From a virus (Duplodnaviria > Heunggongvirae > Uroviricota > Caudoviricetes): a stretch of DNA of 16,352 bases. The stretch's first letter is position 1, and each line of letters opens with the position of its first letter. Made by a program: the position numbers and the translations under genes. Positions 46 through 15,303 of this stretch are shown here, piece by piece. The stretch lies in the IMG/VR virus record IMGVR_UViG_2603880150_000001; one strand, given 5' to 3'. The notes beneath the pieces are model-generated. The model worked only from the letters and a program-made list of their open reading frames with translations. It ran no database searches and had not been told where the DNA came from.

Positions 46-651
46 CTACGCCTCCGGCAGTTCAGGCCAGATGACATCCGGCGCGGTGCTGGTATCTGTT
101 GCCGTCACCGCGTCAATGTAATCCAGCGCAGCGTTAAGTCGGGCGGTTTCTGCCTGCGTCAGATTCCGTCCGGCCTGCAATTTCAGCTGAATCAGACTAA
201 TGGAAGCCATTGCAGTATCAATCAGTGACTGACGCTGTGCTTCTGCCGCGCCTACTGCGGCGCTATGCTGTGCCACAGTATCTGTTACCCATTTCTCACC
301 ATCCCATTCATCGTATGGCGTTAACGGGGCGATAGTGGTTGTATTTTCAGGATAATCACCCGGAGCTGTGATTTCTTTCGATTCTCCTGTTTCGGTGCTA
401 TAGATGATTTCACCGCGATGGTCTGGCACATATTCCCATGAGTTTAAATCTGCCGAACGGCAGATTGCATAACCAGCCTTATGTGTGCCAGGAGCATCTA
501 AACAGGAATATGCAGGGATACCGACACCCACAGCAAGATATTCAGTTGATGCAGAAATATACTCCCGTGTCTCACTGTCATAGTTATAAACGGTAATCTC
601 TCCTGCCTTTGTGGCAATAAATTTACTATTCAAGATGGCGTTATACATCAT
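46..651 (-). CDS. G: Tail fibre assembly protein (P2 gpG / Tfa family)
   Basis: 201-aa ORF. C-terminal stretch '...LNAALDYIDAVTAT...WPELPE' is typical of Tfa-type tail fibre chaperones. Start overlaps the stop of the upstream H gene (ATGA) and the position matches P2 order H-G. Confidence 0.75.
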   Translation of the reverse strand: MMYNAILNSKFIATKAGEITVYNYDSETREYISASTEYLAVGVGIPAYSCLDAPGTHKAGYAICRSADLNSWEYVPDHRGEIIYSTETGESKEITAPGDYPENTTTIAPLTPYDEWDGEKWVTDTVAQHSAAVGAAEAQRQSLIDTAMASISLIQLKLQAGRNLTQAETARLNAALDYIDAVTATDTSTAPDVIWPELPEA

Positions 652-1793
652 GCAGCCCTCACAATGTAATTAAATGAAATATTACGTGGGCGTGTCTCTG
701 CTGCACCGACAATACTGGTACTCAACCCCGTCGCTGTTCGTTTGTTATTTTTATTTCCTTCAATCAGACAGTTGTAATCATCATTACCAATTAACGAATT
801 AGTGGCATCAATACCGTCCGGGGACAAGGCATTAGTTGTAGAACTTAAAGTCAGCATCTCGTCTGAACTTGGAAGATTTTTTAATGGTATTTCATTGCGA
901 GAAATACCCGCGTAAAAAAAGGACTCATGCCTGTGCGCTTCAAAAGAGTCATCCTGAAGACTTAGCAAGGCACGTCCCGCATCCACACCACGCCCGTCAT
1001 CCCAGCCACGAATAAACTCACCACGTAAATCAGGCAATTTATTTGTCGGATAAGCCTTTGCCAGTTCCGGGTATTCTTCAGCAGAAAAAGCGGCACCGTT
1101 GCATTTCAGCCAGCCTGTTGGCGGAGTGGCGGAAGGCCACGGAACAGGCACGCCAACGGGTAATGCCGAACCTTCTCCCAAACCAAGGTTTTTAAGAACG
1201 TCGCCGGCCAGTCCCGCGTCAACCATTTCTTTCAGAGCATTAGCGATTAACGGGTACTGCTTGTGTGGATTGGCGGCCTCAACATGTTTTTTCATCAGGT
1301 CATCAGCATATCCTTTCACCTCGATAATCTTGTCGTCGACATACTGGCGCGTTGCCAGCACGACTGCCGGGTCGATTTTCAGGGTGATTGCCGATGTGCT
1401 CGACACAATCAGAATCATGCGAATGGTCTGCGTGCGACCGCTTCCCTCCTGCAGTTGTGGCTTGTAGGTCTCCGGACAGTTCGCCACGGCAATCAGAATA
1501 CCATCATCGTCATAGAGACCAATCTCGCGGATCCAGAAACCACCTTCATTCTCGGGAATAATCTGTTCCGCGATAATCTGACTGGTATTGGCCGGGTCAA
1601 CGGTCAGCAGGTTCAGCGGCGCGATGCGTTTCTGGTTAATGAGCTTCGTCTGCGCCGGATCAGGGGTCGGCAACGTACCATTCGCATCACCGACGGCCAT
1701 CTGCGTCAGGTTGAGTTTGGTACCGAGTGCCGCCGCGTTCGCCAGCCGCGCCGCGCCCTGATTGGTCAGAATGGCAAAATATTTTGCGGTCAT
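648..1793 (-). CDS. H: Tail fibre protein (P2 gpH-like N-terminus, Stf-like tail-collar C-terminal domain)
   Basis: 381 aa. N-terminus (MTAKYFAILTNQGAARLANAA...MAVGD...GGFW.RE.GLYDD.G.LIAVAN) matches the conserved P2 H baseplate-attachment region. C-terminal part contains 'PVPWP...GWL.C.G...YP.L...LPDLRGEFIRGWDDGRG', a tail-collar-like motif. Syntenic between I and G. Confidence 0.85.
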   Translation of the reverse strand: MTAKYFAILTNQGAARLANAAALGTKLNLTQMAVGDANGTLPTPDPAQTKLINQKRIAPLNLLTVDPANTSQIIAEQIIPENEGGFWIREIGLYDDDGILIAVANCPETYKPQLQEGSGRTQTIRMILIVSSTSAITLKIDPAVVLATRQYVDDKIIEVKGYADDLMKKHVEAANPHKQYPLIANALKEMVDAGLAGDVLKNLGLGEGSALPVGVPVPWPSATPPTGWLKCNGAAFSAEEYPELAKAYPTNKLPDLRGEFIRGWDDGRGVDAGRALLSLQDDSFEAHRHESFFYAGISRNEIPLKNLPSSDEMLTLSSTTNALSPDGIDATNSLIGNDDYNCLIEGNKNNKRTATGLSTSIVGAAETRPRNISFNYIVRAA

Positions 1794-2398
1794 GCGTTCA
1801 CTCTCAGGTTATCAATCAAATGGATGGCCGAGGCCGGGTAATATTCACCGCCGACGACAATCTCCTCGGGGGTGTAGGGGTAAACAGTCAGCGCGTCGCC
1901 GTGATAGCATCCCGCGCCGACATACAGTTCGCCGGTCGAGCTCAGACTGATAGCCAGCCCGGTCAGGTGGCGACTTGCCGGTTTGGCGTCTTCAATCAGG
2001 CGCTCAAGCTCCTGATACATTTCGTCAGTGATGCCGCTGTCGAGGACGCCAACAACGAGGCGGAATGTGCCTGGCTCCTCGTCGAGTTGCCACCACTCGC
2101 GCACCTCAATCAGAAAGCCGAGCGGCTCGACGACCCGACGCAATGCGCTGATGGTGCCTTTGTGCTGATGGACGAAAAACGAGGACGCGCAGACGTTGCG
2201 CTTTGTCGCCTCCGGCCATTTCTCATCCCACCTGTCGACCGACAGCGCCCACGCCAGATACGGCAGCAGCTTTACCGGGCAGGTGCGCCAGTTCCACAGG
2301 GTGCGCAGCGGTACCGGCACGCGCTGAATCTCAGAGAACGCAGCGGCGGCGGCGACCTCCAGCGGCGACGAGCCAACGGGTAATAGCCGGTCATTCAT
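1790..2398 (-). CDS. I: Baseplate/tail protein gpI
   Basis: 202 aa. Strong similarity to P2 gpI as recalled (LLP.GSSPLEVAAA...LAWA.SVDRWDEKWPEATKR...HKGTI.A.RRVVEPLG). Overlaps J end and H start. Confidence 0.9.
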   Translation of the reverse strand: MNDRLLPVGSSPLEVAAAAAFSEIQRVPVPLRTLWNWRTCPVKLLPYLAWALSVDRWDEKWPEATKRNVCASSFFVHQHKGTISALRRVVEPLGFLIEVREWWQLDEEPGTFRLVVGVLDSGITDEMYQELERLIEDAKPASRHLTGLAISLSSTGELYVGAGCYHGDALTVYPYTPEEIVVGGEYYPASAIHLIDNLRVNA

Positions 2399-3299
2399 CC
2401 GAGCCCCCGATAGTTATCTGGTACTCGGTACAGTTCGACGCCTGCGACTTACTCAGCACTATGTCGGCCTGCGGTGATGTCAGCTCGACACGCTGCACCC
2501 CCTCAACATGCAGCGCCGCATAAATGGCTGACAGACGGATATCACGCCCGAGGCGGTGCTGCGCGCTGATGTAGCTCTGCAGCTTCTGCTCTGACGCCTG
2601 CCTGATGGGTTCAGATTCGGGGCCGGGGTAAACGTAGATCGTCGCGTCAATCTGGTACGGCACAATCTCGGCTGACTGGACGGTCACCCGGTCAGCTACC
2701 GGGCGCACATCTTCGGCGTTCAGCGCTTTATCAACAATCGCCAGTAGCTCAGGGCTGGCAGTGCCGTCCCCCTCACGCGATAGCACGGTAATCGTCACGC
2801 AGGCTGGCGACGGGCTGGCGACCGAAACGTCAGCGACCCGCCCGTCGGCGCTGCGGCCGTGATACTCATATGCACCGACCGGACCCGCCACGCTCAATCC
2901 CTCAAACGCCTGTTGCGTGCGCAGTCGCAGGTCGGTATCAGATTCCATAACGGCTGGTGTCGGCGGGATGGTGGTATCATCCGCCGGGGTGATGGTCAGG
3001 CGTTCGGTATTATTGTTCCCGGCTACGACGTCGAGGTCGTTACCGGCGGAGTAGGCCAGCGTCACCGCCTGCGCGGCTTCGTTCACCCGCTGACGCCAGA
3101 TAACTTCACGGTAGGCGTTTTCCTGCAGCAGCTTAACAACCGGCTCTGACTCAAGTGTGAGCGTCCGGGCAATGGCCTCCTGCTGGTCTTCTGGATAGAG
3201 CGATATCAGCGTCGCTTTGCGTTCCGCAAGGATGGTTTCATAGTCCAGTTCCTCAACCACATCGGGAACGGGTAACTGACTCAGGTCAACGGTTGCCAT
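2391..3299 (-). CDS. J: Baseplate assembly protein gpJ
   Basis: 302 aa, same length as P2 J. Syntenic between W and I. Codon usage is GC-rich like its neighbours. Confidence 0.85.
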   Translation of the reverse strand: MATVDLSQLPVPDVVEELDYETILAERKATLISLYPEDQQEAIARTLTLESEPVVKLLQENAYREVIWRQRVNEAAQAVTLAYSAGNDLDVVAGNNNTERLTITPADDTTIPPTPAVMESDTDLRLRTQQAFEGLSVAGPVGAYEYHGRSADGRVADVSVASPSPACVTITVLSREGDGTASPELLAIVDKALNAEDVRPVADRVTVQSAEIVPYQIDATIYVYPGPESEPIRQASEQKLQSYISAQHRLGRDIRLSAIYAALHVEGVQRVELTSPQADIVLSKSQASNCTEYQITIGGSDE

Positions 3300-3305
3300 A
3301 GTTAT

Positions 3306-3653
3306 TTAACTCAGTGAAACAGTGGTTGAAACTGACGCACCGGTATCGGTGCGCATCCCGGTAATATCGACATATATTTCGCCAGCGTCGCCGGTCTCAA
3401 AGCTGATGGCGGTAAGCCTGATGCGCGGCTCCCACTTCTGGATAGCCGAATAGCACGCCACCATAATTTGCAGCCTGAGCGCCGGGTTTTGCGGCATATC
3501 AATCAGCGCCGACAGAAGCGAGCCATATTCACGACGCATCACCCGCGAGCCGACCGGCGTCAGCAGAATGTCGCGCATGCTCTGGCTGATATGCTCGGTA
3601 TCGCTGATGCCGAGGCCAGTATTTCGGTTCATACCCTGATAACGCGCTGTCAT
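3306..3653 (-). CDS. W: Baseplate protein gpW
   Basis: 115 aa, same length as P2 W. 'MTARY.GMNR..GL...D.EHISQS..DIL.TPVGSRVMRR.YGSLL' matches P2 W as recalled. Confidence 0.9.
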   Translation of the reverse strand: MTARYQGMNRNTGLGISDTEHISQSMRDILLTPVGSRVMRREYGSLLSALIDMPQNPALRLQIMVACYSAIQKWEPRIRLTAISFETGDAGEIYVDITGMRTDTGASVSTTVSLS

Positions 3654-4285
3654 ATCGGCGCACCCGTTGTCCCGCCGCTGTCGCCGGGGTGTTTATGGGT
3701 GTGGAGCACCTTGCCATTAGATGACAGCGACCCGCCTGTATGCTCGATGTTGCCTTTCATCGTTCCGCCCTTTTGCACCTCAAGCGTCGCTGTCGTCAGC
3801 TTGTTGGTGCAAATCACCTCGGGGGTGTCGAGGGTGATACTGGTTGAGGCTTTCACCAGTACCAGCGGCACGGTTGCGGTGATGGATCCCGATGCCGTCA
3901 CGTCGGCCGTTTTGATGCCGCTGACCGTCAGCGCACTGGTCTCGGGCTCGTACTCAATGACCGCACCATCAGGGAAAACCACATGCCACGCATCCGCCGA
4001 GGCAGAGGGGGCGGGGTTATCGTCGGAGAAAATTCCAGGCAGCACGAAAGCGGTATCAAGCTCGCCACCGATTGCCAGCAGCAGAACCTGCTCACCGACC
4101 GAGGGAGCCCACCACGTCCGCGAACGACCGGCGCGGGTGGTCAGCCAGTTCAGCCATGTAGTCTGGATCCCGCCGCTTTGTACGCGGCACAGCCCTTGCA
4201 CGGTATCAACCTCAGTCACCACACCTGAGCGGATGAGGTTGCGAATCGCGCGCGCGAGCTCCTGTATCGTGGATAACGTATTCAT
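3650..4285 (-). CDS. V: Baseplate spike/assembly protein gpV
   Basis: 211 aa, same length as P2 V. Start overlaps downstream W by 4 nt. Syntenic. Confidence 0.85.
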   Translation of the reverse strand: MNTLSTIQELARAIRNLIRSGVVTEVDTVQGLCRVQSGGIQTTWLNWLTTRAGRSRTWWAPSVGEQVLLLAIGGELDTAFVLPGIFSDDNPAPSASADAWHVVFPDGAVIEYEPETSALTVSGIKTADVTASGSITATVPLVLVKASTSITLDTPEVICTNKLTTATLEVQKGGTMKGNIEHTGGSLSSNGKVLHTHKHPGDSGGTTGAPI

Positions 4286-4353
4286 AGTGCAAGGATGCCT
4301 CTGGTCTGGAGTCGCGCCAATTCGCGCGGCTCCGGTGGTGGTTCACACAATAT

Positions 4354-4803
4354 TTATTTGCCGAGATGCCTGATAATGACGTTTTCAATCATCTGCTCAT
4401 CGTCGCGGGTGAAACCGAGTAACGGGCGCGCCTCGTACTGCACATCCCGGCTGTTGCGGTTTGGTCTGTCTTTGAGCCCGTACTGATGCACCCGCGCCAT
4501 GCGCTGCACCTTGTCGGTAAACTCCACCACCGCCGCACTGTCGCTGCCTTTGGCTTTCATAAAGCGACTGGTGCGCAGTTTGGCGAACATTTCACGTTTA
4601 ATCCGACCTTTCTTGCTCCTCACCGGCTGGCGCTTTCGTGCCGCATACGGGGTGCCGTCTGGTGCCTGCTGGCGCTTGATACGTTGTTGCTGACTGGTAC
4701 GCAGCTTTTTCGCAATCTCAGCCGCCATTTGCCGACGCGCCGCCGGTGACAGGCTGGCAATCAGACCGGCAAGGCGTTCCTGCAGTGCGGTTAACTCACT
4801 CAT
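4354..4803 (-). CDS. S: Tail completion / virion morphogenesis protein gpS
   Basis: 149 aa (P2 S about 150 aa). Syntenic between R and V. Basic, lysine/arginine-rich middle region as in P2 S. Confidence 0.8.
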   Translation of the reverse strand: MSELTALQERLAGLIASLSPAARRQMAAEIAKKLRTSQQQRIKRQQAPDGTPYAARKRQPVRSKKGRIKREMFAKLRTSRFMKAKGSDSAAVVEFTDKVQRMARVHQYGLKDRPNRNSRDVQYEARPLLGFTRDDEQMIENVIIRHLGK

Positions 4804-5272
4804 CCCACTTACTCACCAGTTCGCCGTTAACGTACAGCTCGACCGGGCGCGTCACCGGCTCAGGCAGCGGCGGCTCAGGGGCATAGCTGACATGCAGCGC
4901 GCCGTCGACCTCTTTGACGAGCGTGCGCTCGGTGAGCCTCAGGCTGATACTGATATCGAGCGAATCGTCGTTATTGATATCAATAATCCAGGTGAATCCT
5001 TTTTCCCGCCCGTCGTCGGTGGTCATAATGTCCGGCTGATGCTCACGCAGCCACGCCTGCACCGGCACGAATATCAAATCAAGGTCACCGGTGAAGTCGG
5101 TCACCACCACGTTAAGCACGTACACCTTTTCAAACGACAGCGAGCTCGCCAGTCTGGAATCGGTATGGCCGTTGTCGGCAAAAAGGCGCAGCATATCGGG
5201 GTTGTTTCGGAGCTGCGGCACGGCGTTAATCAGCGCTTTGCGCAGGCTTTTGTGCTTCTGCATCGAGTTCAT
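4796..5272 (-). CDS. R: Tail completion protein gpR
   Basis: 158 aa (P2 R about 155 aa). Overlaps S start by 8 nt. Syntenic downstream of the lysis cassette. Confidence 0.8.
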   Translation of the reverse strand: MNSMQKHKSLRKALINAVPQLRNNPDMLRLFADNGHTDSRLASSLSFEKVYVLNVVVTDFTGDLDLIFVPVQAWLREHQPDIMTTDDGREKGFTWIIDINNDDSLDISISLRLTERTLVKEVDGALHVSYAPEPPLPEPVTRPVELYVNGELVSKWDE

Positions 5273-5516
5273 CCTGACAGTGTTTGACGGTTTTGACCTG
5301 TAGCGCGCAGGCGATCAGCGCGCCCTCAAGGCGGCGGATATCTGCGCTCAGGTCACCATTGGTTTTCGGGTCACTTCCCGGCATCGGGCAAAGGCTCACT
5401 CTCGGGCATCCGTTGACCACAATCACCGGCGCTGGCGCAGGCGGTGCGGATGTGCAACCGACGCACAACATCAGGTAAAGCAGCGTTATACCAGCGGCGA
5501 AAGGCCTCATTTTCAT
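5226..5516 (-). CDS. lysC: LysC, Rz1-like outer-membrane spanin lipoprotein
   Basis: 96 aa, same length as P2 LysC. Hydrophobic signal followed by a lipobox-like 'LCVGC' and a proline-rich stretch. Reading frame overlaps the 3' part of lysB and the 5' part of R, the Rz/Rz1 overlapped arrangement. Confidence 0.75.
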   Translation of the reverse strand: MKMRPFAAGITLLYLMLCVGCTSAPPAPAPVIVVNGCPRVSLCPMPGSDPKTNGDLSADIRRLEGALIACALQVKTVKHCQDELDAEAQKPAQSAD

Positions 5517-5784
5517 TAAGTAACCTCGTTATTGATTGCTCGCGGCGGCTGGCTTCCTCGCTGGCCTTTGCGAGCTGTTCACGCAGTGCCACCTGCGCAG
5601 ATTCATTACGTCTGGCAAGCTGACCGGCAACACTGAGCTGATTTTTCAGCATGCCAATCGTCGTCTTTTGTTCGCTCGCGACGCGGTTTGCTGTCTCAAA
5701 GGAGCGGGATAAATTGCCGTTCTCATGGCGCAACCACAACATCCCGAGCACAGTCAGCACCAGAAGTGTAATCAGGATTTTCAT
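5371..5784 (-). CDS. lysB: LysB, Rz-like inner-membrane spanin
   Basis: Start chosen at the internal Met (MKILITLLVLTVLGMLWL...), giving an N-terminal transmembrane helix and a coiled-coil-like remainder. This ATG overlaps the K stop (ATGA). The longer ORF from 5811 would overlap K by 31 nt. Confidence 0.7.
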   Translation of the reverse strand: MKILITLLVLTVLGMLWLRHENGNLSRSFETANRVASEQKTTIGMLKNQLSVAGQLARRNESAQVALREQLAKASEEASRREQSITRLLNENEAFRRWYNAALPDVVRRLHIRTACASAGDCGQRMPESEPLPDAGK

Positions 5785-6278
5785 TCCATTACCCCGCCAG
5801 CGGTGCGCCATACGGTGACCAGTTTGTCGAGGCTGTGCTCACGTTGGCCGTAACCGGCACCCGGTAACGACGCCCAGATATTGCGGCACCTTGAAATTGC
5901 CTGCTCAATACGCCCCGCCTTAATATCCTCAATGGCACCGCGTTCGCGGATTAACTGAATCGCAAGTTTGTCCTGCGACAACGGGCTGAAATCAGGCAAT
6001 GCGAGTTGTTTCTGATAGTGCGGCCAGTAGAGATAAAGCTGCTGGTAACGCCCTGATGCCGTGGATTTTTCGCCGCGTCGATTAAACACTTTCGCTGGTC
6101 TGCCATGTGCGAAAGGGTGGTCGGTGTAGTCGGTGAAAATTTCCGGCTTGCCATCAAGGCCAGTGACAATGACGTCGTAACCACGATTTTTCGTCAGCGG
6201 ATGCGTCGCCGTCCCTTCGGAATAGGCCAGCATGTCCAGAAATGCGGCGATATTCTGGTGAGTATTAATGACCGGCAT
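5781..6278 (-). CDS. K: Endolysin gpK (lysozyme-like)
   Basis: Start at internal Met 'MPVINTHQNIAAFLDMLAYSEGT...', giving about 165 aa as in P2 K. Motif 'LAYSEGT' is typical of lambda R / P2 K type lysozymes. The 77-codon N-terminal extension in the raw ORF lies in another frame of holin Y and is not coding. Confidence 0.85.
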   Translation of the reverse strand: MPVINTHQNIAAFLDMLAYSEGTATHPLTKNRGYDVIVTGLDGKPEIFTDYTDHPFAHGRPAKVFNRRGEKSTASGRYQQLYLYWPHYQKQLALPDFSPLSQDKLAIQLIRERGAIEDIKAGRIEQAISRCRNIWASLPGAGYGQREHSLDKLVTVWRTAGGVME

Positions 6279-6561
6279 CGCTATCCCCCTGTTGTGACTT
6301 AAAGCGGCGCTGAATGGCGATTTCCACCACCTGATAACCTGCAATGCCGAGCATGGATCCAATCCCACAAACGGCAGGCAGTGACATATCTGGAAACTGC
6401 ACCAGAACAACACCGGCGACCATTGAAACAAAACCGCCGAGCAGCATGCGGCCGATAAACAGGCGCGGGGTAATGGGCTCACCGCCCGCCAGCACTTTTC
6501 CGACAACAATCATCACGCCAATCACAAACAGTGACAGGACGCCTTTTTCCCCTTCTGTCAT
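6265..6561 (-). CDS. Y: Holin gpY
   Basis: 98 aa with hydrophobic transmembrane segments and a charged C-terminus. Near-identical in pattern to P2 Y as recalled (LSLF.IGV.IVVGKVLAGGEPITPRLFIGRMLLGGFVSMVAGVVLVQFPD). Confidence 0.85.
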   Translation of the reverse strand: MTEGEKGVLSLFVIGVMIVVGKVLAGGEPITPRLFIGRMLLGGFVSMVAGVVLVQFPDMSLPAVCGIGSMLGIAGYQVVEIAIQRRFKSQQGDSDAGH

Positions 6562-6564
6562 GGT

Positions 6565-6768
6565 TTACTCCCAAAGGTTGATAGTTTCTGTTACGGGTGA
6601 CGATGCCACGTCGGGCAGGTCAATCGCCGTGCCATGCGGCAGAATGACGCCCAGCTCAGACAGACCGGGATTAGCCTGTAGCACCGTCTCGACCACGCCC
6701 TCAGTGCGCCCGTAATACCGGGCGCAAAGCGCGTCGAGGGTGTCGCCCTGCATCGCGTAGACTTTCAT
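6565..6768 (-). CDS. X: Tail protein gpX (LysM-like)
   Basis: Start at internal Met 'MKVYAMQGDTLDALCARYYGRTEGVVETVLQANPGL...' gives 67 aa, identical in length and very similar to P2 X. Its ATG shares one base with the L stop (TGATG). Confidence 0.8.
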   Translation of the reverse strand: MKVYAMQGDTLDALCARYYGRTEGVVETVLQANPGLSELGVILPHGTAIDLPDVASSPVTETINLWE

Positions 6769-7277
6769 CAGAGCTGACCCACGATGCAGCGCGGCTTGTC
6801 CTGCAGACGCGAGACCGACCAGCGCATATCCCGCCACAGGTCATCAATGGTGGTTTCGACGCTGTCGGCTTTTTTGTCACCCTTGCCCGTGGCCTCAACC
6901 CCGCGATAACGCTCATACAGGGTGGCGGTCGCCATCGCCGTCACGGCGCTGAGGTAGTGGAAAACGCGCACATTCTCGCCGTCGATTTCCTCGGCGTCAG
7001 GCACGTCGGCCAGTGTCTTAAACCCTGCGGCAATCTGGCGCAGCCGGTAGTCGTAAAGCTCCGCATTGGTTTCCGCCATGCCGGTCTTGATGGCGTTGCG
7101 CAGGCGCGCATCGGAAACCGTCTGCTCAAGGCGCATCAGTTCGCGCACCCGCTTCGGATCCACATCAGGGAAAAAGAACGTGTTTTTAATCACTGCGTCG
7201 CCCGTCTCCGGTGCGGGAATCACCACGCCCGGTACGTCCTGCGGTTCGTCGGGCTGATTCAGTATTACTGTCGTCAT
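6768..7277 (-). CDS. L: Head completion/stabilisation protein gpL
   Basis: 169 aa, same length as P2 L. Syntenic between M and X. Confidence 0.85.
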   Translation of the reverse strand: MTTVILNQPDEPQDVPGVVIPAPETGDAVIKNTFFFPDVDPKRVRELMRLEQTVSDARLRNAIKTGMAETNAELYDYRLRQIAAGFKTLADVPDAEEIDGENVRVFHYLSAVTAMATATLYERYRGVEATGKGDKKADSVETTIDDLWRDMRWSVSRLQDKPRCIVGQL

Positions 7278-7370
7278 GACAACCTCATTAGGTTGGGCGG
7301 TGGACGCCGGTCGCCGTCAGGGTCAAAACCCACTTTGACCGGCGTGCCGCCCGGCTCGGGGAGCGTTCAG

Positions 7371-8120
7371 TTAACCGGCGGTTTTTACCGCCTTTGGTGG
7401 ACGCCCGCGCTTTGCCGCCGGTTTGTTGGCAGGTTTGCGCGTGCGCGGTTTAGTCGTTTTACGGGATGCTGCCTCTGGCTTTGGCTTCAATGCGCGCTCC
7501 AGCCGCTCAATCTCTTTGCGCACACCGGCATTGCGGTCGAGCTGCATCGCGCGCTGAAACTGTGCCAGTGCTTCGGCGCTCTGACCGGCATCGCGCAGGG
7601 TCAGGCCTGTCACCTTATGCAGTCGAGCGCGCACCATATCGGGAACGTCAGCGCCGTCGGTCAGGCTAAGGGTGGTCAGCAGTAATGCGAGGTCGACAGG
7701 CTCACCGGCATCGCGCAGGCGCAGCGCGGCAAGCGCCACCTCCTCAACCAGCATGTAAGGTGTCGTGCGGCGATAGTCAGAGGTGAGGCCGTACTTCAGC
7801 GCGTATGGAGCAATTTCCAGCGCGCCAGCGATATCACCGGCATCGAGACGCCACAGCATGACTGTCATCAGAATGTCATCCTGCGCACCACGGCCATCAG
7901 CCAGCACACCGGCGACCCACGGCGCATAGAACGGCAGCAGCTCACGCTTTTTCGCGGCTTTCAGTTCGTTTGAACGGATGGTTTTCAATGTGCGGCGGTC
8001 ATCGGCCAGCTTTACCAGCATCTGCTCGTAGGCGGTTGCATGGCGCAGCGGGGCTTGTTCCCGCTGCGCGGCTTGAGAGGCCGAGACCCGCATCATGTGA
8101 CGCTGTGCGGGGCTCGTCAT
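7371..8120 (-). CDS. M: Terminase endonuclease (small) subunit gpM
   Basis: Start at internal Met (MTSPAQRHMMRVSASQ...) gives 249 aa (P2 M about 247 aa). Basic lysine/arginine/proline-rich C-terminus. Located 4 nt downstream of the N stop. Confidence 0.85.
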   Translation of the reverse strand: MTSPAQRHMMRVSASQAAQREQAPLRHATAYEQMLVKLADDRRTLKTIRSNELKAAKKRELLPFYAPWVAGVLADGRGAQDDILMTVMLWRLDAGDIAGALEIAPYALKYGLTSDYRRTTPYMLVEEVALAALRLRDAGEPVDLALLLTTLSLTDGADVPDMVRARLHKVTGLTLRDAGQSAEALAQFQRAMQLDRNAGVRKEIERLERALKPKPEAASRKTTKPRTRKPANKPAAKRGRPPKAVKTAG

Positions 8121-8124
8121 GGGC

Positions 8125-9192
8125 TTACTCTCCGCTTTCCGGTGCTGCAGGTGCGGTGAAATCGCCCAGGGTGATGTTTTCCAGCAGACACCCGGCGGCA
8201 TACGCCTCGACCACATAGTCGATATTCATTGACTCGTAGTTTTCCACGCGGTCTTTTTTCGGGTTTTCATCAATGCTGCGGCGGTGGCTCTCATCCATGA
8301 AATAGATAGAGAGGTTTTCCAGCGTGGTCACTAACACGGCATTCGCCGGGAAGTACGGCACACGCACAGCAGGCAGGTTGCCGATTCGCTTCTGGCTGAT
8401 GATGATATCTGCCGCGAGCGCTTCGCTGTTTTCTTGCGGCTTGTTTACCAGCGGGAAATATTTGTCGGCCAGCAGCTTACGGCCTACGATGGCAACGAGT
8501 TTCGGGTCATCCTGATAAACCTCGTCAATCAGGTTGTTGGTAGCATCCATCACCAGCGCGTCGAGGTTCTCATAGTCGCCGTTTTTACCGACGCGAATCA
8601 CTGCCGAAACGACCTTACCGTCAGCATCGGTGATATTGCTCATCACACGCGTCGGGGCTTCGTTGCGGTATTTCTGCAGCCAGCCGACGGCTACATCCTG
8701 CAGCATCGGATTTTTGGTGCGGTCAGAGGTGGCGGCGCGGGTGGTACCGTTAAAACCGGCCATGATGAAATCGAGCGCCTGACGCTTAACAATGGCGTCA
8801 CGGATGCGGCGCTGAAAGTCCTGAAAACGCGCCCACAGGTCGAGGGTTTTATATTTCAGATGGAAGTCAAAGTTAATCTGGTCGCACTCGTACTTGTTGG
8901 ACTCAAGCGCGGTGAAGTCTGCGGTCTTACGCTCATCATCGCCCGAGGTGTCGGTCGTGCTGGCGATAGTACCGGTCACACCGACGCCGATTTTCTCACC
9001 CTTCATTTCTGCGACCGGCAGAATATTAATCGTCTGCAGAAACGCGGATGACTCCTGCACTTTGTTCATCAGTGTTTGCGTGACGGACGGCTCGACGGTG
9101 AATTTTTTACTGACGTCATCAGTGCTGATGCCGTTCAGCTCAGCGACGCGGGTCAGATAGGCATTGAACTTAAAACGGGTATCCGGGCGCAT
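8125..9192 (-). CDS. N: Major capsid protein gpN
   Basis: 355 aa (P2 N about 357 aa). AGGA ribosome-binding site 6 nt upstream of the ATG. Syntenic between O and M. Confidence 0.9.
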   Translation of the reverse strand: MRPDTRFKFNAYLTRVAELNGISTDDVSKKFTVEPSVTQTLMNKVQESSAFLQTINILPVAEMKGEKIGVGVTGTIASTTDTSGDDERKTADFTALESNKYECDQINFDFHLKYKTLDLWARFQDFQRRIRDAIVKRQALDFIMAGFNGTTRAATSDRTKNPMLQDVAVGWLQKYRNEAPTRVMSNITDADGKVVSAVIRVGKNGDYENLDALVMDATNNLIDEVYQDDPKLVAIVGRKLLADKYFPLVNKPQENSEALAADIIISQKRIGNLPAVRVPYFPANAVLVTTLENLSIYFMDESHRRSIDENPKKDRVENYESMNIDYVVEAYAAGCLLENITLGDFTAPAAPESGE

Positions 9193-10288: not shown

Positions 10289-12058
10289 ATGACCATTTCC
10301 ACAGATACAACCTTGTTGCATGACCCGCGACGGCAGGCATCGCTGCTTTACTGGCAGGGGTTTTCCGTGCCACAGATTGCCGAAATGCTGCAGGTCAAGC
10401 GCCCGACCGTGCAGAGCTGGAAGCAGCGCGACGGCTGGGACGGCATCGCGCCGATTTCCCGCGTTGAAAGCAGCCTTGAGGCCAGGCTGATTCAGCTCAT
10501 CGCCAAGCCGCAAAAGACAGGGGGTGATTTCAAAGAGATTGACCTGCTCGGACGGCAGATTGAACGGTTGGCGCGAGTCAACCGCTACAGCCAGACCGGC
10601 AACGAAGCCGACCTTAACCCCAACGTCGCCAACCGCAACAAAGGGGAGCGCAAAAAGCCGAAAAAGAATTTTTTCAGCGACGAGGCTATCGATAAACTAG
10701 AGGAATTATTTTTCGATCAGTCTTTCGAGTACCAGCTGCAGTGGTACCGCGCAGGACTGGAGCACCGTATTCGTGACATTCTCAAATCCCGCCAGATTGG
10801 CGCGACATTCTATTTCTCCCGCGAGGCACTGCTGCGCGCACTGAAAACCGGCCATAACCAGATATTTTTATCAGCCAGTAAAACGCAGGCTTACGTGTTC
10901 CGCGAATACATCATCCAGTTTGCGCGACTGGTCGACGTTGACCTGACTGGCGACCCGATTGTCATCGGTAACAACGGCGCAAAACTGATTTTTCTCGGTA
11001 CCAATTCCAACACCGCGCAGAGCCATAACGGCGATCTGTATGTCGATGAAATATTCTGGATCCCGAATTTTCAGAAACTGCGCAAAGTCGCCTCGGGCAT
11101 GGCCTCGCAAAAGCACCTGCGCTCGACCTATTTTTCGACACCTTCCACGCTGGCGCACGGCGCTTACCCCTTCTGGTCTGGCGAGCTGTTCAACAAGGGG
11201 CGCAGCCGGATTGCCGACCGCATCGAAATCGACATCAGTCACAGCGCGCTCGCCGGTGGCCAGCTCTGCGACGATGGCCAGTGGCGGCAGATTGTCACCA
11301 TTGAGGACGCCCTTGCGGGTGGCTGCACCCTGTTCGACCTCGACCAGCTCAAACGCGAAAACAGTGATGAGGACTTTAAGAACCTGTTTATGTGCGAGTT
11401 TGTCGACGATAAAGCGTCGGTATTCCCGTTCGAGGAGCTGCAGCGCTGCATGGTCGATGTGATGGAGGAATGGGAGGACTTTGCCCCGTTCGCAGACCAT
11501 CCGTTCGGCTCTCGTCCTGTCTGGATTGGCTACGACCCGTCACACACCGGCGACAGTGCCGGGTGCGTCGTGCTCGCGCCGCCGGTGGTCTCTGGTGGCA
11601 AGTTCCGCATGCTGGAGCGCCACCAGTGGAAGGGCATGGATTTTGCAGCACAGGCAGAGGGCATCCGCAAGCTGACCGAGAAATACAACGTCGAATACAT
11701 CGGCATTGACGCAACCGGCCTCGGTCTCGGCGTGTTCCAGCTGGTGCGCTCATTTTACCCGGCGGCACGCGGCATCCGTTACACACCTGAAATGAAAACC
11801 GCAATGGTACTCAAGGCGAAAGACACCATTCGCCGTGGCTGTCTGGAGTACGACGCCGGAGCAACCGACGTCACACAGTCGTTTATGTCCATCCGCAAAA
11901 CCATGACCAGCAGCGGGCGCAGCGCCACCTATGAGGCCAGCCGCACCGAGGAAGCCAGCCACGCCGATATCGCATGGGCGACCATGCACGCCCTGTTAAA
12001 CGAACCGCTTTCTGCCGGTAGCGGCATGCAGCCTAAATCTATTCTGGAGTTCAACTAA
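10289..12058 (+). CDS. P: Terminase ATPase (large) subunit gpP
   Basis: 589 aa (P2 P about 590 aa). GAGG ribosome-binding site 7 nt upstream. Divergent from O as in P2. Followed 1 nt later by the portal gene. Confidence 0.9.
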   Translation: MTISTDTTLLHDPRRQASLLYWQGFSVPQIAEMLQVKRPTVQSWKQRDGWDGIAPISRVESSLEARLIQLIAKPQKTGGDFKEIDLLGRQIERLARVNRYSQTGNEADLNPNVANRNKGERKKPKKNFFSDEAIDKLEELFFDQSFEYQLQWYRAGLEHRIRDILKSRQIGATFYFSREALLRALKTGHNQIFLSASKTQAYVFREYIIQFARLVDVDLTGDPIVIGNNGAKLIFLGTNSNTAQSHNGDLYVDEIFWIPNFQKLRKVASGMASQKHLRSTYFSTPSTLAHGAYPFWSGELFNKGRSRIADRIEIDISHSALAGGQLCDDGQWRQIVTIEDALAGGCTLFDLDQLKRENSDEDFKNLFMCEFVDDKASVFPFEELQRCMVDVMEEWEDFAPFADHPFGSRPVWIGYDPSHTGDSAGCVVLAPPVVSGGKFRMLERHQWKGMDFAAQAEGIRKLTEKYNVEYIGIDATGLGLGVFQLVRSFYPAARGIRYTPEMKTAMVLKAKDTIRRGCLEYDAGATDVTQSFMSIRKTMTSSGRSATYEASRTEEASHADIAWATMHALLNEPLSAGSGMQPKSILEFN

Positions 12059-12059
12059 A

Positions 12060-13106
12060 ATGGGTAAACAAAAATCCCGTAAAGCCAACGCACAAAAGGC
12101 CAGCAAACCACAACAACTGACCGCCAGCGCACCGCCAAAAACGACAGCGTTCACCTTCGGCGAGCCGGTGCCGGTACTCGATAAGCGCGACATTCTGGAT
12201 TACGTCGAGTGCATCAGTAACGGCAAATGGTACGAGCCGCCGGTCAGCTTCTCAGGGCTGGCAAAGAGCCTGCGCTCTGCCGTGCATCACAGCTCGCCAA
12301 TTTATGTTAAGCGTAACGTGCTCGCGAGCACCTACATTCCGCACCCGTTGTTATCCCGTCAGGATTTCAGCCGCTTTGCGCTCGATTATCTGGTGTTCGG
12401 TAACGCCTTTCTTGAGCAGCGCCACAGCGTCACCGGCCAGTTAATCAAACTGCTGGCCTCGCCAGCCAAATACACCCGACGCGGAGTCGACGATTCGATT
12501 TTCTGGTTTGTGGAAAACTTCACCCAGCCGCACGAGTTCGCGCCTGATACCGTGTTTCACCTGCTGGAGCCCGACATTAATCAGGAGATTTACGGTCTGC
12601 CGGAATATCTCAGCGCGCTTAATTCCGCTTGGCTGAATGAATCCGCGACGCTGTTCCGCCGCAAGTATTATCAGAACGGCGCGCACGCAGGCTACATCAT
12701 GTATGTGACTGACCCGGCGCAAAGTGCGACCGACGTCGAATCGCTGCGCGAGGCGATGCGTAACTCGAAGGGGCTCGGCAACTTTAAGAACCTGTTTTTC
12801 TACGCCCCCGGCGGAAAACCGGACGGCATCAAAATCGTGCCACTGAGCGAGGTCGCCACAAAGGATGACTTTTTCAACATTAAGAAAGCCAGCGCCGCCG
12901 ACCTGATGGACGCGCACCGCGTGCCGTTCCAGCTCATGGGCGGCAAGCCCGAGAATATCGGTTCACTCGGTGACGTTGAGAAGGTGGCAAAGGTATTTGT
13001 GCGTAATGAGCTGTCACCCCTGCAGGATAGGTTCAGGGAGGTAAACGACTGGCTCGGTATGGAGGTCATCAGGTTCAAAGAGTACACACTCGACAACCCG
13101 GAATAA
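12060..13106 (+). CDS. Q: Portal (capsid vertex) protein gpQ
   Basis: 348 aa (P2 Q about 344 aa). Immediately downstream of P in the same orientation. Followed by a terminator hairpin. Confidence 0.9.
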   Translation: MGKQKSRKANAQKASKPQQLTASAPPKTTAFTFGEPVPVLDKRDILDYVECISNGKWYEPPVSFSGLAKSLRSAVHHSSPIYVKRNVLASTYIPHPLLSRQDFSRFALDYLVFGNAFLEQRHSVTGQLIKLLASPAKYTRRGVDDSIFWFVENFTQPHEFAPDTVFHLLEPDINQEIYGLPEYLSALNSAWLNESATLFRRKYYQNGAHAGYIMYVTDPAQSATDVESLREAMRNSKGLGNFKNLFFYAPGGKPDGIKIVPLSEVATKDDFFNIKKASAADLMDAHRVPFQLMGGKPENIGSLGDVEKVAKVFVRNELSPLQDRFREVNDWLGMEVIRFKEYTLDNPE

Positions 13107-13144: not shown

Positions 13145-13369
13145 TTAGCCCTTAGACTTTTTAGGATCATCTTTTCTCTGATAAGTGCGTTCTTCCTGAA
13201 TTTTCCCATCTTCCTTGTGAATTTTGACCGAGCCTGTTTTGTTCGACATAAACTCAGATGTTGTTTTAATCAGCTCGGCCTTTGTGGGCGCGGTCTTGCT
13301 AGGGCGGTCATTGCCCTCTTTTTGCAACTTCCACTTATCGCCATCTTTTGTAATATGATAGTTATCCAT
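13145..13369 (-). CDS. Small DUF2188-like protein of unknown function
   Basis: Start at internal Met (MDNYHITKDGDKWKLQKEG...), preceded by a GGAGG ribosome-binding site. 74 aa with the pattern 'H...DG.W.vkkEG....s..f.TKaE.i....e.....g...IH..DGkIq....y...DP' that I recall for the DUF2188 family. Lysine-rich C-terminus. Confidence 0.55.
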   Translation of the reverse strand: MDNYHITKDGDKWKLQKEGNDRPSKTAPTKAELIKTTSEFMSNKTGSVKIHKEDGKIQEERTYQRKDDPKKSKG

Positions 13370-13573
13370 TAAAGCCTCCAACTGTTGTGGGGAACATAAA
13401 GTCTCAATATGGATATTAGCCAAAGCGAAACCGTAAAATTGTGCAACTGATCCCATCCTTTAGCACCACGCCACAGACGCACCACGCGCCCACGATCACA
13501 CCCGGCCACTACAGCGCCGTCACGACGTTCTCAGACGATAATTTTTAATAATACGCACCACCGCTGGCGCGCA

Positions 13574-13592
13574 ATGCTTTCCCCGCCACGCC
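13574..13592. other. Putative cos site (19-nt cohesive-end sequence, 186 type)
   Basis: The reverse complement of 13574-13592 reads GGCGTGGCGGGGAAAGCAT, which matches the cohesive-end sequence I recall for phage 186 (P2: GGCGAGGCGGGGAAAGCAC). Location downstream of portal gene Q is consistent with P2-family genome organisation. Sequence identity is from memory, not a search. Confidence 0.55.
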
Positions 13593-13737
13593 TGCCCGCT
13601 TTATGGGTCGGTTTTAATGCAGTTGCATGACCTCGCTTTAGCTAAGCTACTACCGGTACTCCTTATGTTTTGGCGGTTGGATCAACGCATGCAAAAAAAT
13701 GCAGTGGCATGCACACATTCATTACATCTTATTTATC

Positions 13738-14448
13738 TTATCGAACCCTTTTTTCCAGATTGAGTAGGGCTTTTTTGCATTTTTTTTGATTAATAAACGT
13801 TCTATCCAGTATCTTTATATGAAACATCATTACTCTATTGAAGCAAATAAACATTTCTCGGGCATCCTGGCCAACAATCAGAAACGACTCGCCATTAATA
13901 TTTGGAATGTTGCTATTCTTCGATAAATCATCAAATGCCTCAGAGCCACGTTCATTTCTATACATTTCTTTAATAGCCATTACTTCATCGTGGCGAACGA
14001 TATTAATCCAAATTAATTTATCTACAGTCAACAATTGCCCATACTCTAAGAAAAATACTCCCTTGGCTAACCAGGTGCCGTATTGGTAAATCTCCCTACC
14101 ATTTAGGGGTAATGTTATCTGCGCACCTTTTTTTGTATGCCTAACACTCTGGAATGCTTCACGAAATTTCGAGTCTTTTCTTTTAAGCGCATTATGGAAT
14201 TTATTAACAGCATCAAAGCTGCCTGTTGAGTGCTCTCCTACCATGCGGCAAATGACACCTAACACCTCGTCAATTCGGCTTTTATCGCCATTGCACTTTT
14301 TGCATACATAGAAATCACCTTCGCCGTTGGTTCTATGAATGGAGACTGAAACTTGCGGAATCATGTGTTCAACTGAGCGGCAGTGGGGGTGATTTTCAAC
14401 CTTATTCATGAGAACACCGCAATAAACGCAGTGTGTGCTTGGTTTCAT
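13738..14448 (-). CDS. HNH nuclease-domain protein with uncharacterised C-terminal domain (candidate accessory/defence gene)
   Basis: 236 aa from the Met with the best ribosome-binding site (AAGGG, 8-nt spacer); in-frame alternatives at 14454 and 14529. N-terminus carries a zinc-finger HNH signature: C-V-Y-C ... H-P-H-C ... V-E-H-M-I-P ... N ... C-K-K-C-N-G-D-K. C-terminal ~150 aa unrecognised. Gene is AT-rich (counted 60-nt samples 28% and 42% G+C, against ~60% in the terminase region). Confidence 0.6.
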   Translation of the reverse strand: MKPSTHCVYCGVLMNKVENHPHCRSVEHMIPQVSVSIHRTNGEGDFYVCKKCNGDKSRIDEVLGVICRMVGEHSTGSFDAVNKFHNALKRKDSKFREAFQSVRHTKKGAQITLPLNGREIYQYGTWLAKGVFFLEYGQLLTVDKLIWINIVRHDEVMAIKEMYRNERGSEAFDDLSKNSNIPNINGESFLIVGQDAREMFICFNRVMMFHIKILDRTFINQKKCKKALLNLEKRVR

Positions 14449-14544
14449 ATACATTGCCCTTACAATGTCTAATGACGAATGAGTAGCACTAAAATAACAC
14501 AAATCTGATGGTGGGATGTCAGCCCCCATGCTTTAGATTGGACA

Positions 14545-14574
14545 TACGAAAACCGGCTTTAATAGTGCCGGTTT
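14545..14574 (-). terminator. Rho-independent terminator (minus strand)
   Basis: Minus-strand RNA reads AAACCGGC-ACUAUUAAA-GCCGGUUUU: an 8-bp stem with a 9-nt loop followed by a U-run. Lies downstream of the small ORF and repeat copy A, and upstream of the HNH gene. Confidence 0.5.
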
Positions 14575-14595
14575 GGGCCAATCTCTACGGAACAG

Positions 14596-14666
14596 ACTAA
14601 CCCCTAGAGGGACTCGTTGTTCAACCCTCCAGTACCGAAAGCAAGTTTCAGCGCCGACGGCGTTCG
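14596..14666 (-). repeat. Repeat copy A (~70 nt) abutting the stop codon of the 69-aa ORF
   Basis: Aligns with 14999-15069 at roughly 80% identity. The core 'caaccc.ccag.ac.gaaagcaag.ttcagc.ccgacggcgtt.g' is shared. Minus-strand RNA can form a hairpin (12 of 14 pairs including G-U). Confidence 0.6.
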
Positions 14667-14876
14667 CTATCTTCGACATGGTGGTGGCGCATATTGTGTC
14701 GGCCTGCTGATATCGTTCAGCTTATCGTAGTTATCCCTGACTATTTCTGCACACCCGACCAATTCCGCTGGCGTCAGGTTCTCATTGACCATTATCGTCT
14801 GCAAGCGATGAACGATAGCCATCAGTTTTATGCTTTTAGTTTTGTGCTGCGGAATTTCGCCCGGTAGTCGATGCAT
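14667..14876 (-). CDS. Hypothetical small protein (69 aa)
   Basis: ORF with a GAGGG ribosome-binding site 9 nt upstream of the ATG. No recognisable motif. AT-rich cargo context. A second in-frame Met at codon 19 is an alternative start. Confidence 0.4.
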   Translation of the reverse strand: MHRLPGEIPQHKTKSIKLMAIVHRLQTIMVNENLTPAELVGCAEIVRDNYDKLNDISRPTQYAPPPCRR

Positions 14877-14998: not shown

Positions 14999-15069
14999 AA
15001 CTAACGCCTCTCGGAGCCAGTTTCAACCCCGCCAGCACTGAAAGCAAGATTCAGCACCGACGGCGTTTG
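14999..15069 (-). repeat. Repeat copy B (~70 nt) abutting the stop codon of the DinI-like gene
   Basis: Aligns with 14596-14666. Minus-strand RNA forms a 14-bp stem (CCGUCGGUGCUGAA / UUCAGUGCUGGCGG, 4 G-U pairs) with a 7-nt loop. On the plus strand the wobble pairs become A-C mismatches, so the fold is specific to the minus strand. Confidence 0.6.
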
Positions 15070-15303
15070 TTAATGCAGCCAGCTATCGTCCTCCCATACC
15101 TGCTGCATGATTTCCATTACTCGTTTTTTATCTTCGTCCAGTTTCAAACCGCTTAACTCAACGCCATTAGCTGAGCCCTTACGAATGCGGATAGCAGTCT
15201 TTGGGTAAATAGGTTGAAGATTGCGGTACAGCTCAGCCTCAAGTGCATCCAACGTTGCCTGACTAATTTTTTGCTCTTTATCCAACGTGATATTGATTCT
15301 CAT
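15070..15303 (-). CDS. DinI-like protein
   Basis: 77 aa. Alignable with E. coli DinI as recalled: 'MRI..T..K.......A.DAL..EL.R......P........R......LS........DK.R..EI.Q..WE....W'. Similar length (DinI 81 aa). Confidence 0.75.
   Translation of the reverse strand: MRINITLDKEQKISQATLDALEAELYRNLQPIYPKTAIRIRKGSANGVELSGLKLDEDKKRVMEIMQQVWEDDSWLH

Follow-up and report, generated by a model that had tools for sequence, protein, structure and literature searches.

The 16,352-nucleotide stretch analysed here (the window) comes from a virus of the class Caudoviricetes (IMG/VR record IMGVR_UViG_2603880150_000001) and represents the late-gene half, in inverted orientation, of a 186/PSP3-type member of the P2 family. 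On the far side of the cohesive-end site (cos) from the portal gene lies the right-end accessory region with its DinI/tum module. There, on the minus strand, a short gene encodes a protein with an HNH nuclease core, which we consider as a candidate prophage-borne immune nuclease. An earlier note on this DNA, made from the sequence alone, had assigned the gene to the cos-proximal slot in which P2 carries old and tin. This assignment stands: the gene occupies the position between replication gene A (gpA) and portal gene Q (gpQ), and its stop codon lies 145 bp from the cos cut. The cut is placed by alignment: the match to the right end of the PSP3 genome begins at 13593, and position 1 of the annotated cos of phage EtG falls, in agreement, on 13592. 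The 19-mer that ends at the cut is presumably a P2/186-type sticky end.

As first drawn, the open reading frame (ORF) extended over 13738-14529 on the minus strand, giving 263 codons counted from the first ATG. The ORF exists, but its start had been placed 81 nt too far upstream. Translation almost certainly begins at the ATG at 14448 (M28 of the 263-codon ORF), which yields a protein of 236 amino acids (aa). This follows from 22 homologues that start at an equivalent MKPSTHCVYCG, from the extent of the profile phrog_31193 (236 positions, function unassigned), which matches residues 28-263 of the long ORF (E 9e-172), and from a conserved ribosome-binding site. The latter has the form AAGGG/GGG, 6-10 nt before the ATG at 14448, in five loci, and a G-rich block is kept at this position in E. 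coli, Klebsiella, Kosakonia and metagenomic loci. The gene had been credited with a plausible ribosome-binding site, and one stands before the ATG at 14448; inspection of the sequence revealed no Shine-Dalgarno motif before the ATG at 14529. The intervening 27-codon extension is probably not translated.

Gene calls elsewhere vary. RefSeq begins a 223-aa protein at M14 of the 236-aa form (loci L001 and L002, the latter in E. coli P13-6), while other records give 263 aa. Since the 223-aa call removes the first CxxC zinc ligands, the HNH domain has perhaps been missed by automated annotation. The exact 236-aa sequence is present on 315 contigs, every one named 'hypothetical protein', and among the UniRef names for the cluster one reads 'HNH endonuclease 5 domain-containing protein' and the remainder 'hypothetical'. 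The ratio of nonsynonymous to synonymous divergence (dN/dS) relative to the E. coli P13-6 allele, which has 86% protein identity, is 0.09 at a dS of 0.8. The HNH gene is real and under strong purifying selection.

The zinc-finger HNH motif described in the earlier note is borne out by the sequence and by a family alignment of 45 sequences, with identities down to 17%. In the numbering of the 236-aa form the motif reads C7xxC10 ... E27-H28-M-I-P31 ... N41 ... C49xxC52-N53-xx-K56. The predicted zinc ligands are C7, C10, C49 and C52, the predicted metal ligands E27 and N53, and the predicted general base H28, with D45 standing where the structural Asn of an HNH site would be. Across the alignment, H28, C52, N53, K56 and G130 are invariant, and C7, Y9, C10, E27, P31, D45, F46, C49 and D60 are at least 90% conserved. 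The core has two sequence features of the HNH superfamily, namely a [D/E]H pair and a four-Cys zinc site combined with the Asn of CxxC[N/H]xxK.

In profile comparisons, the family profile matches the HNH endonuclease 4h9d in the Protein Data Bank (PDB; E 1.5e-3) and the HNH domain of A. naeslundii Cas9 (E 0.023). In both cases the DH and CxxCNxxK motifs are aligned, and the E27-H28 pair falls on the DH of the known enzyme. Pfam HNH_5 is matched by 10 of the 45 family members (best E 1e-6) and Pfam HNH by three, while PADLOC PtuB is weakly matched by 31 (best E 1e-8) and also by the long ORF (E 7e-5). The window protein alone matches nothing in Pfam or NCBIfam. Nuclease activity is predicted for the family.

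The C-terminal region, to roughly 150 residues of which the earlier note could assign no family, has kept that status. Beyond residue ~60 there is no match in Pfam or NCBIfam, and sequence and profile searches of the PDB reach the HNH core only. A Foldseek structure search likewise gave no real neighbour, with a best E of only 0.02. AlphaFold2, supplied with the 45-sequence alignment, nevertheless predicts the whole protein as one compact body (predicted local distance difference test, pLDDT, 94.6; predicted template modelling score, pTM, 0.91). In this predicted structure, a three-helix linker (about residues 50-100) leads to an alpha/beta domain with strands at 103-110, 144-151 and 188-215 and helices at 117-136 and 153-177. 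The terminal helix, residues 218-236, is basic (isoelectric point 10.6), and this character is conserved, as is the motif Y123-G124-x-W-L-x-K129-G130. An exhaustive profile search, which covered 1.84 billion cluster representatives, returned 81 at E 1e-3 or better and 26 at 1e-30 or better, most of them 220-250 aa long with the same full-length architecture. The possibility that the C-terminal domain is a shuffled sensor module was dropped, as domain-only matches look like truncated ORFs and the search never showed the domain behind a different N-terminal domain.

The base composition of the gene had been thought to contrast with that of its surroundings, and it does. The GC content of the HNH gene is 0.390 (0.397 at third codon positions, GC3), against 0.555 (GC3 0.705) for the portal gene and 0.564 for the structural region, marking the gene as foreign to the phage backbone. 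Alignment to phage PSP3 and to a prophage with an empty site (L035, in E. coli EC6868) defines an insert in which the coding sequence is accompanied by about 94 nt on its 5' side and about 20 nt on its 3' side. On its cos side the slot is bounded by a short element, about 95-125 nt from the cos cut, which may be part of an extended packaging signal. The cargo at this junction varies among related phages, as would be expected of the variable region that the earlier note described: PSP3 carries an unrelated 140-aa protein, gp38, and L035 carries no cargo.

Upstream of the gene stands a hairpin with an 8-bp GC-rich stem followed by UUUU (free energy -17.5 kcal/mol, z -2.4). The earlier note had regarded it as the gene's own upstream terminator. 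The hairpin is present, but because it also occurs in L035, which has no HNH gene, it lies outside the insert and belongs to the tum/DinI operon of the backbone. Its interpretation as a terminator of the cassette itself was thus rejected. It still shields the HNH gene from transcription that arrives from upstream. By analogy with tum of phage 186, the tum/DinI operon would be SOS-inducible. The run of T residues after the hairpin is four here (TTTTCG) compared with seven in L035 (4151-4185), so that transcription of this operon might conceivably read through into the HNH gene. The allele of E. coli P13-6 shares a candidate extended -10 promoter with the window. A fold scan found no convincing terminator downstream of the gene, and Rfam and repeat searches of the cassette returned nothing relevant.

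Evidence for movement of the cassette comes from the comparison with E. coli P13-6. The block common to the two prophages extends over 13738-14575, beginning at the stop codon and ending shortly beyond the hairpin, at 84.8% DNA identity, and in P13-6 it stands in another cargo context, which upholds the description of the gene as a single-gene module. The portal proteins of the two prophages are 100% identical, whereas the HNH proteins are 86% identical. Since the alleles have reached a dS of 0.8 beside identical portals, the cassette has been exchanged independently of the backbone. In P13-6 the HNH allele sits by a kinase resembling PD-T4-6 rather than by cos.

The P13-6 locus (2317-5821) is also of interest for its layout, in which cos lies in the middle of the cargo. 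On the portal side of cos are two genes without assigned function (241 and 274 aa, GC 0.37), and on the gpA side are the PD-T4-6-like Ser/Thr kinase, of 538 aa, and the HNH allele. With cargo on both sides, it appears that both flanks of cos accept it.

Table 1. Features of the HNH cassette and of the surrounding phage backbone, in window coordinates.
Feature	Position	Strand	Remark
HNH-family coding sequence, 236 aa	13738-14448	-	includes stop codon 13738-13740
Zinc-finger HNH (beta-beta-alpha-metal) core, residues 1-60	14269-14448	-	
Residues 61-236	13741-14268	-	three-helix linker, alpha/beta domain, basic C-terminal helix
In-frame 27-codon upstream extension	14449-14529	-	missing from homologues and PHROG profile
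Ribosome-binding site AAGGG	14457-14461	-	8 nt before ATG 14448, read from sequence
Candidate extended -10 promoter TGTTATTTT	14491-14499	-	spotted by eye, low confidence
Insert relative to empty-site relative, ~825 bp	13718-14542	.	alignment to L035 and PSP3
Hairpin AAACCGGC-N9-GCCGGUUU then U-run	14550-14574	-	tum/DinI operon intrinsic terminator
Cos-flanking element ACGCATGCAAAA..ATGCA..GCATGCAC	13685-13716	.	common to window, L035 and PSP3; beyond it, sequences diverge
19-nt cos cohesive end GGCGTGGCGGGGAAAGCAT (as minus strand)	13574-13592	-	cut at 13592/13593
Portal	12060-13106	+	
Terminase ATPase	10289-12058	+	

The gene is rare. It was found in seven of 5426 complete E. coli genomes, 1190 of which have a P2-type portal, so that carriers make up ~0.5% of E. 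coli P2-type prophages. Relatives with at least 55% identity occur in E. coli, Salmonella, Citrobacter, Cronobacter, Klebsiella, Kosakonia, Lelliottia and metagenomes, all of them in the gpA-gpQ slot of 186-like prophages and transcribed toward cos. More distant members lie elsewhere: in another P2-family phage, where the repressor and integrase genes flank the family member, at the point where an HP1-like tail module ends, in an integrative element and in chromosomal islands. The family as a whole numbers about 80 sequence clusters, from Proteobacteria. In all nine loci measured, the GC content of the HNH gene is below that of its locus.

Several of these loci, in contexts independent of one another, carry defence genes in addition to the kinase of E. 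coli P13-6. The neighbours include a SIR2 protein that matches PADLOC PDC-S25 (L003; E 2.5e-145); SoFic, the specificity subunit of a type I restriction-modification system and a class II prokaryotic Argonaute (pAgo) at L007; a protein with a GmrSD N-terminal domain and a HEPN protein within an island flanked by insertion sequences (L010); and an Argonaute-associated REase-like (Aga-REase-like) gene at L016. No conserved partner gene was found across about 30 loci.

The block at L010, in Pseudidiomarina mangrovi (108-9013), ends on both sides in a 395-aa ORF, the two being of equal length and GC content, and the left-end ORF is a DDE transposase (Pfam DDE_Tnp_1). Besides the GmrSD N-terminal-domain protein, it contains an RNase_T exonuclease, two genes of unassigned function and a RiboL-PSP HEPN gene. 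It looks like a composite-transposon-like defence island.

The interpretation that we regard as moderately probable is that the HNH gene encodes a stand-alone prophage immune nuclease, carried as single-gene cargo in the cos-proximal gpA-gpQ hotspot. It is suggested by the conserved catalytic site, purifying selection, the behaviour of the gene as a cassette, its defence neighbours and the lack of a partner gene. The gpA-gpQ slot is an experimentally validated anti-phage hotspot of P2, with old, tin, DUF4238, 3HP and DprA-PRTase among its cargos (Rousset et al. 2022, PMC9122126). The same gene arrangement is listed in Table S5A of that study (PMC9122126), where it is a rare arrangement and the HNH gene is given as 'hypothetical'. 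WP_032143468 is a likely accession of the protein, judged only by position in that table, and WP_223849042 is a second likely one. In P4 hotspots, six of eight randomly chosen loci of unknown function were protective (2026 preprint, bioRxiv 10.64898/2026.02.27.708500). END nucleases, in which a solo nuclease is joined to a sensing domain without a methyltransferase, provide a precedent for the architecture (PMC12191111).

How such a protein might work can be outlined from its predicted structure. Residues 1-60 would form a zinc-stabilised HNH site that cuts nucleic acid, with H28 as the base and E27 and N53 holding the metal, while the rigidly attached alpha/beta domain and its basic helix would serve in substrate recognition or gating. 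As no methyltransferase, ATPase or immunity gene travels along, sparing of the host would have to be built into the one protein. This could be achieved by two routes. The target may be a feature that is missing from host DNA, for example a base modification or a DNA structure or end peculiar to phages, a route that we slightly favour and for which END nucleases provide a precedent. Alternatively, the protein may be inactive until released by a phage cue, in which case defence would take the form of abortive infection. In either case the lysogen, and hence the prophage, would be protected from competing phages. A more specific version is put forward tentatively, as possible but less probable than a defence role as such. 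Here, the protein would be a one-protein immune nuclease, that is, a Septu-type HNH without the PtuA ATPase, licensed by a permanently fused C-terminal sensor of a phage nucleic-acid feature or protein, the fold of this sensor having no detectable relative among solved structures.

A number of observations weigh against a role in immunity. What points to defence is genomic association, and four loci (L004, L005, L006 and L009) have no recognisable defence neighbours. Not all cargo of the hotspot is defensive, since partition systems and a cytolethal distending toxin occur there too (PMC9122126). No full-length PADLOC 2.0 model matches the window protein, and no curated family or paper that covers the protein or its family was found in PADLOC, Pfam, NCBIfam or the literature, searched by accession, PHROG id and keywords. 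A scan for the sigma-70 consensus called no promoter on the strand of the HNH gene. The C-terminal domain has no likeness to a known modified-base reader or sensor. In the exhaustive profile search it was never joined to another effector, so that there is no signal of modularity of the kind a 'sensor' might leave.

The distribution of the gene also invites other explanations. A free-standing, selfish HNH homing endonuclease that cuts the empty cos-proximal slot, and is copied into it by recombinational repair during co-infection, would account for the fixed position and the sporadic distribution. The HNH core, an AT content high relative to the phage and the lack of a partner gene all fit, as do the location at one and the same junction in 186-like phages of E. 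coli, Klebsiella, Kosakonia and metagenomes, the sporadic occurrence among close relatives and the existence of an empty site. Homing is nonetheless unlikely. Pfam searches of the window protein and of the 45 family members found no NUMOD, IENR, AP2 or helix-turn-helix module, and members also occupy other positions in P2-family phages as well as non-phage defence islands by pAgo, restriction-modification and GmrSD genes. Copies in diverged backbones have 62-69% protein identity compared with 76-84% for the portal, which is not the pattern of a recent invasion, and the many unrelated cargos of the slot are inexplicable by a single homing enzyme. Slightly less probable again is a nuclease for the phage's own lytic cycle, expressed by SOS read-through of the weakened tum-operon terminator, with no protection of the lysogen. 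Such an enzyme might break down the DNA of the host or of competitors, or process intermediates of replication or recombination. The gene does lie directly downstream of the SOS-linked tum/DinI operon in the same orientation, with TTTT after the terminator stem as opposed to TTTTTTT in the prophage without an HNH gene, and no strong promoter of its own was detected. However, it is dispensable and rare among P2-type phages and has relatives outside phages. Its 5' region, moreover, moves with the gene between contexts, including that of E. coli P13-6, which lacks DinI, and this suggests that it has expression signals of its own.

HNH nucleases are common toxin domains, and the protein is basic with a nucleic-acid-binding look, so it might be a toxin, either of a prophage addiction module or as an antibacterial effector, paired with an unrecognised small antitoxin or immunity factor. 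This we consider very unlikely, as neither a small ORF nor an RNA was found to be conserved beside the gene, and Rfam returned nothing in the region. The 69-aa ORF upstream is a homologue of PSP3 gp37 that belongs to the backbone and is missing from other contexts, and the protein has neither a secretion or delivery domain nor a signal peptide-like N-terminus. Least probable of all is that the protein is the nuclease of a Septu-like system divided between loci, with its PtuA-like ATPase encoded elsewhere in the host or phage. The only similarity in the defence libraries is to the PtuB and PDC-M01B HNH models, and PtuB is inactive without PtuA (PMC12640716). Against this, no ATPase gene lies alongside in any of the about 30 loci, the similarity is confined to the HNH core (about positions 40-108 of the 224 in the PtuB profile), and the family profile matches no solved PtuB even at E 10. 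The surface by which PtuB binds PtuA is acidic (PMC12640716), whereas the C-terminus of this protein is basic.

Other parts of the window bear on the backbone rather than on the HNH gene. Between the portal stop and cos lies a small DUF2188 gene at 13145-13456 on the minus strand, probably 13145-13369 (Pfam E 3.8e-18), which has a GC content of 0.42 and matches the PADLOC single-gene defence candidate PDC-S16 (E 1.4e-14). It was considered as a partner of the HNH gene and dropped, because it is absent beside other HNH homologues. Loci of the composition 'AAA_21 + DUF2188 + HNH' appear in the P4 table of Rousset et al. In the accessory region, a 45-nt direct repeat (14625-14669 and 15028-15072; 84% identity, 403 nt apart) has one copy just 3' of the 69-aa ORF and the other just 3' of DinI. 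As L035 has a single copy, after DinI, the module with the 69-aa ORF looks like an insertion or duplication bounded by the repeat. At the other end of the window, GC content falls to about 0.42 over 401-1000, inside the ORFs 46-651 and 648-1793, both on the minus strand. These presumably represent a tail-fibre/assembly region and a second compositionally foreign segment.

The HNH gene is one plausible candidate among many at a known hotspot, and would not surprise a specialist. The general principle is already established, and single-gene nuclease cargo at a hotspot is a known kind of system; what sets this one apart is its unmatched C-terminal domain. Many similar candidate genes occupy the hotspot, among which this family is clean, compact and easy to test. 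If the protein is protective, it would add a compact single-protein nuclease system (236 aa, about 0.8 kb) to the prophage-borne defences, and provide a function for PHROG 31193 and for the family as a whole. Such protection would also reveal by what means a Septu-lineage HNH is kept under control in the absence of an ATPase, with a bearing on the host safety of nuclease effectors. The C-terminal domain, being well predicted and unmatched, offers a definite starting point in the search for a new recognition module.

Compared with known HNH enzymes, the protein differs from small stand-alone nucleases with CxxC...CxxC zinc fingers, such as 4h9d (Geobacter Gmet_0936), and from the HNH domain of Cas9 in having D45 in place of the structural Asn and a Glu in place of the Asp metal ligand, and in the about 175 extra residues attached to its core. 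PtuB is the HNH subunit of Septu PtuA-PtuB and also the effector of retrons Eco4 and Eco7. Among the profiles of defence systems, its HNH core comes closest to that of the present protein, and at about 220-240 aa the proteins are alike in size. However, the family has no PtuA nearby and its similarity is limited to residues about 5-65, and identity with Septu PtuB was rejected on these two grounds. A packaging HNH of the HK97 gp74 type, which the earlier note had already thought improbable, was rejected in turn: the protein has 236 aa, the portal gene and cos lie between its gene and the terminase, and it is rare and dispensable, with PSP3 and L035 lacking it. Its sporadic occurrence at one site between conserved genes would suit a homing endonuclease; the DNA-binding modules typical of such enzymes were not found, and the relatives in non-phage defence islands speak against homing.

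Restriction systems and hotspot cargo offer further points of comparison. A type II restriction-modification system was rejected, since no methyltransferase accompanies the HNH gene. There is none in the cassette, and a D12 methylase upstream of gpA is present only in L013-L015 and missing from L001, L002, L012 and L020. McrA-type type IV nucleases and END nucleases (PMC12191111) resemble the protein in that one polypeptide joins a nuclease to a second domain, without a methyltransferase and in defence islands. No recognised reader domain is apparent in the protein, however, as searches of Pfam, the PDB and predicted folds found no SRA, EVE, YTH, winged-helix or EndoIII match. In its genomic setting, the gene is like the established cargo of the gpA-gpQ hotspot. 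It occupies the same slot by cos between replication gene A and portal gene Q, is likewise AT-rich and swapped between otherwise near-identical phages as a short, self-contained unit, and differs from that cargo in that its protein belongs to another family.

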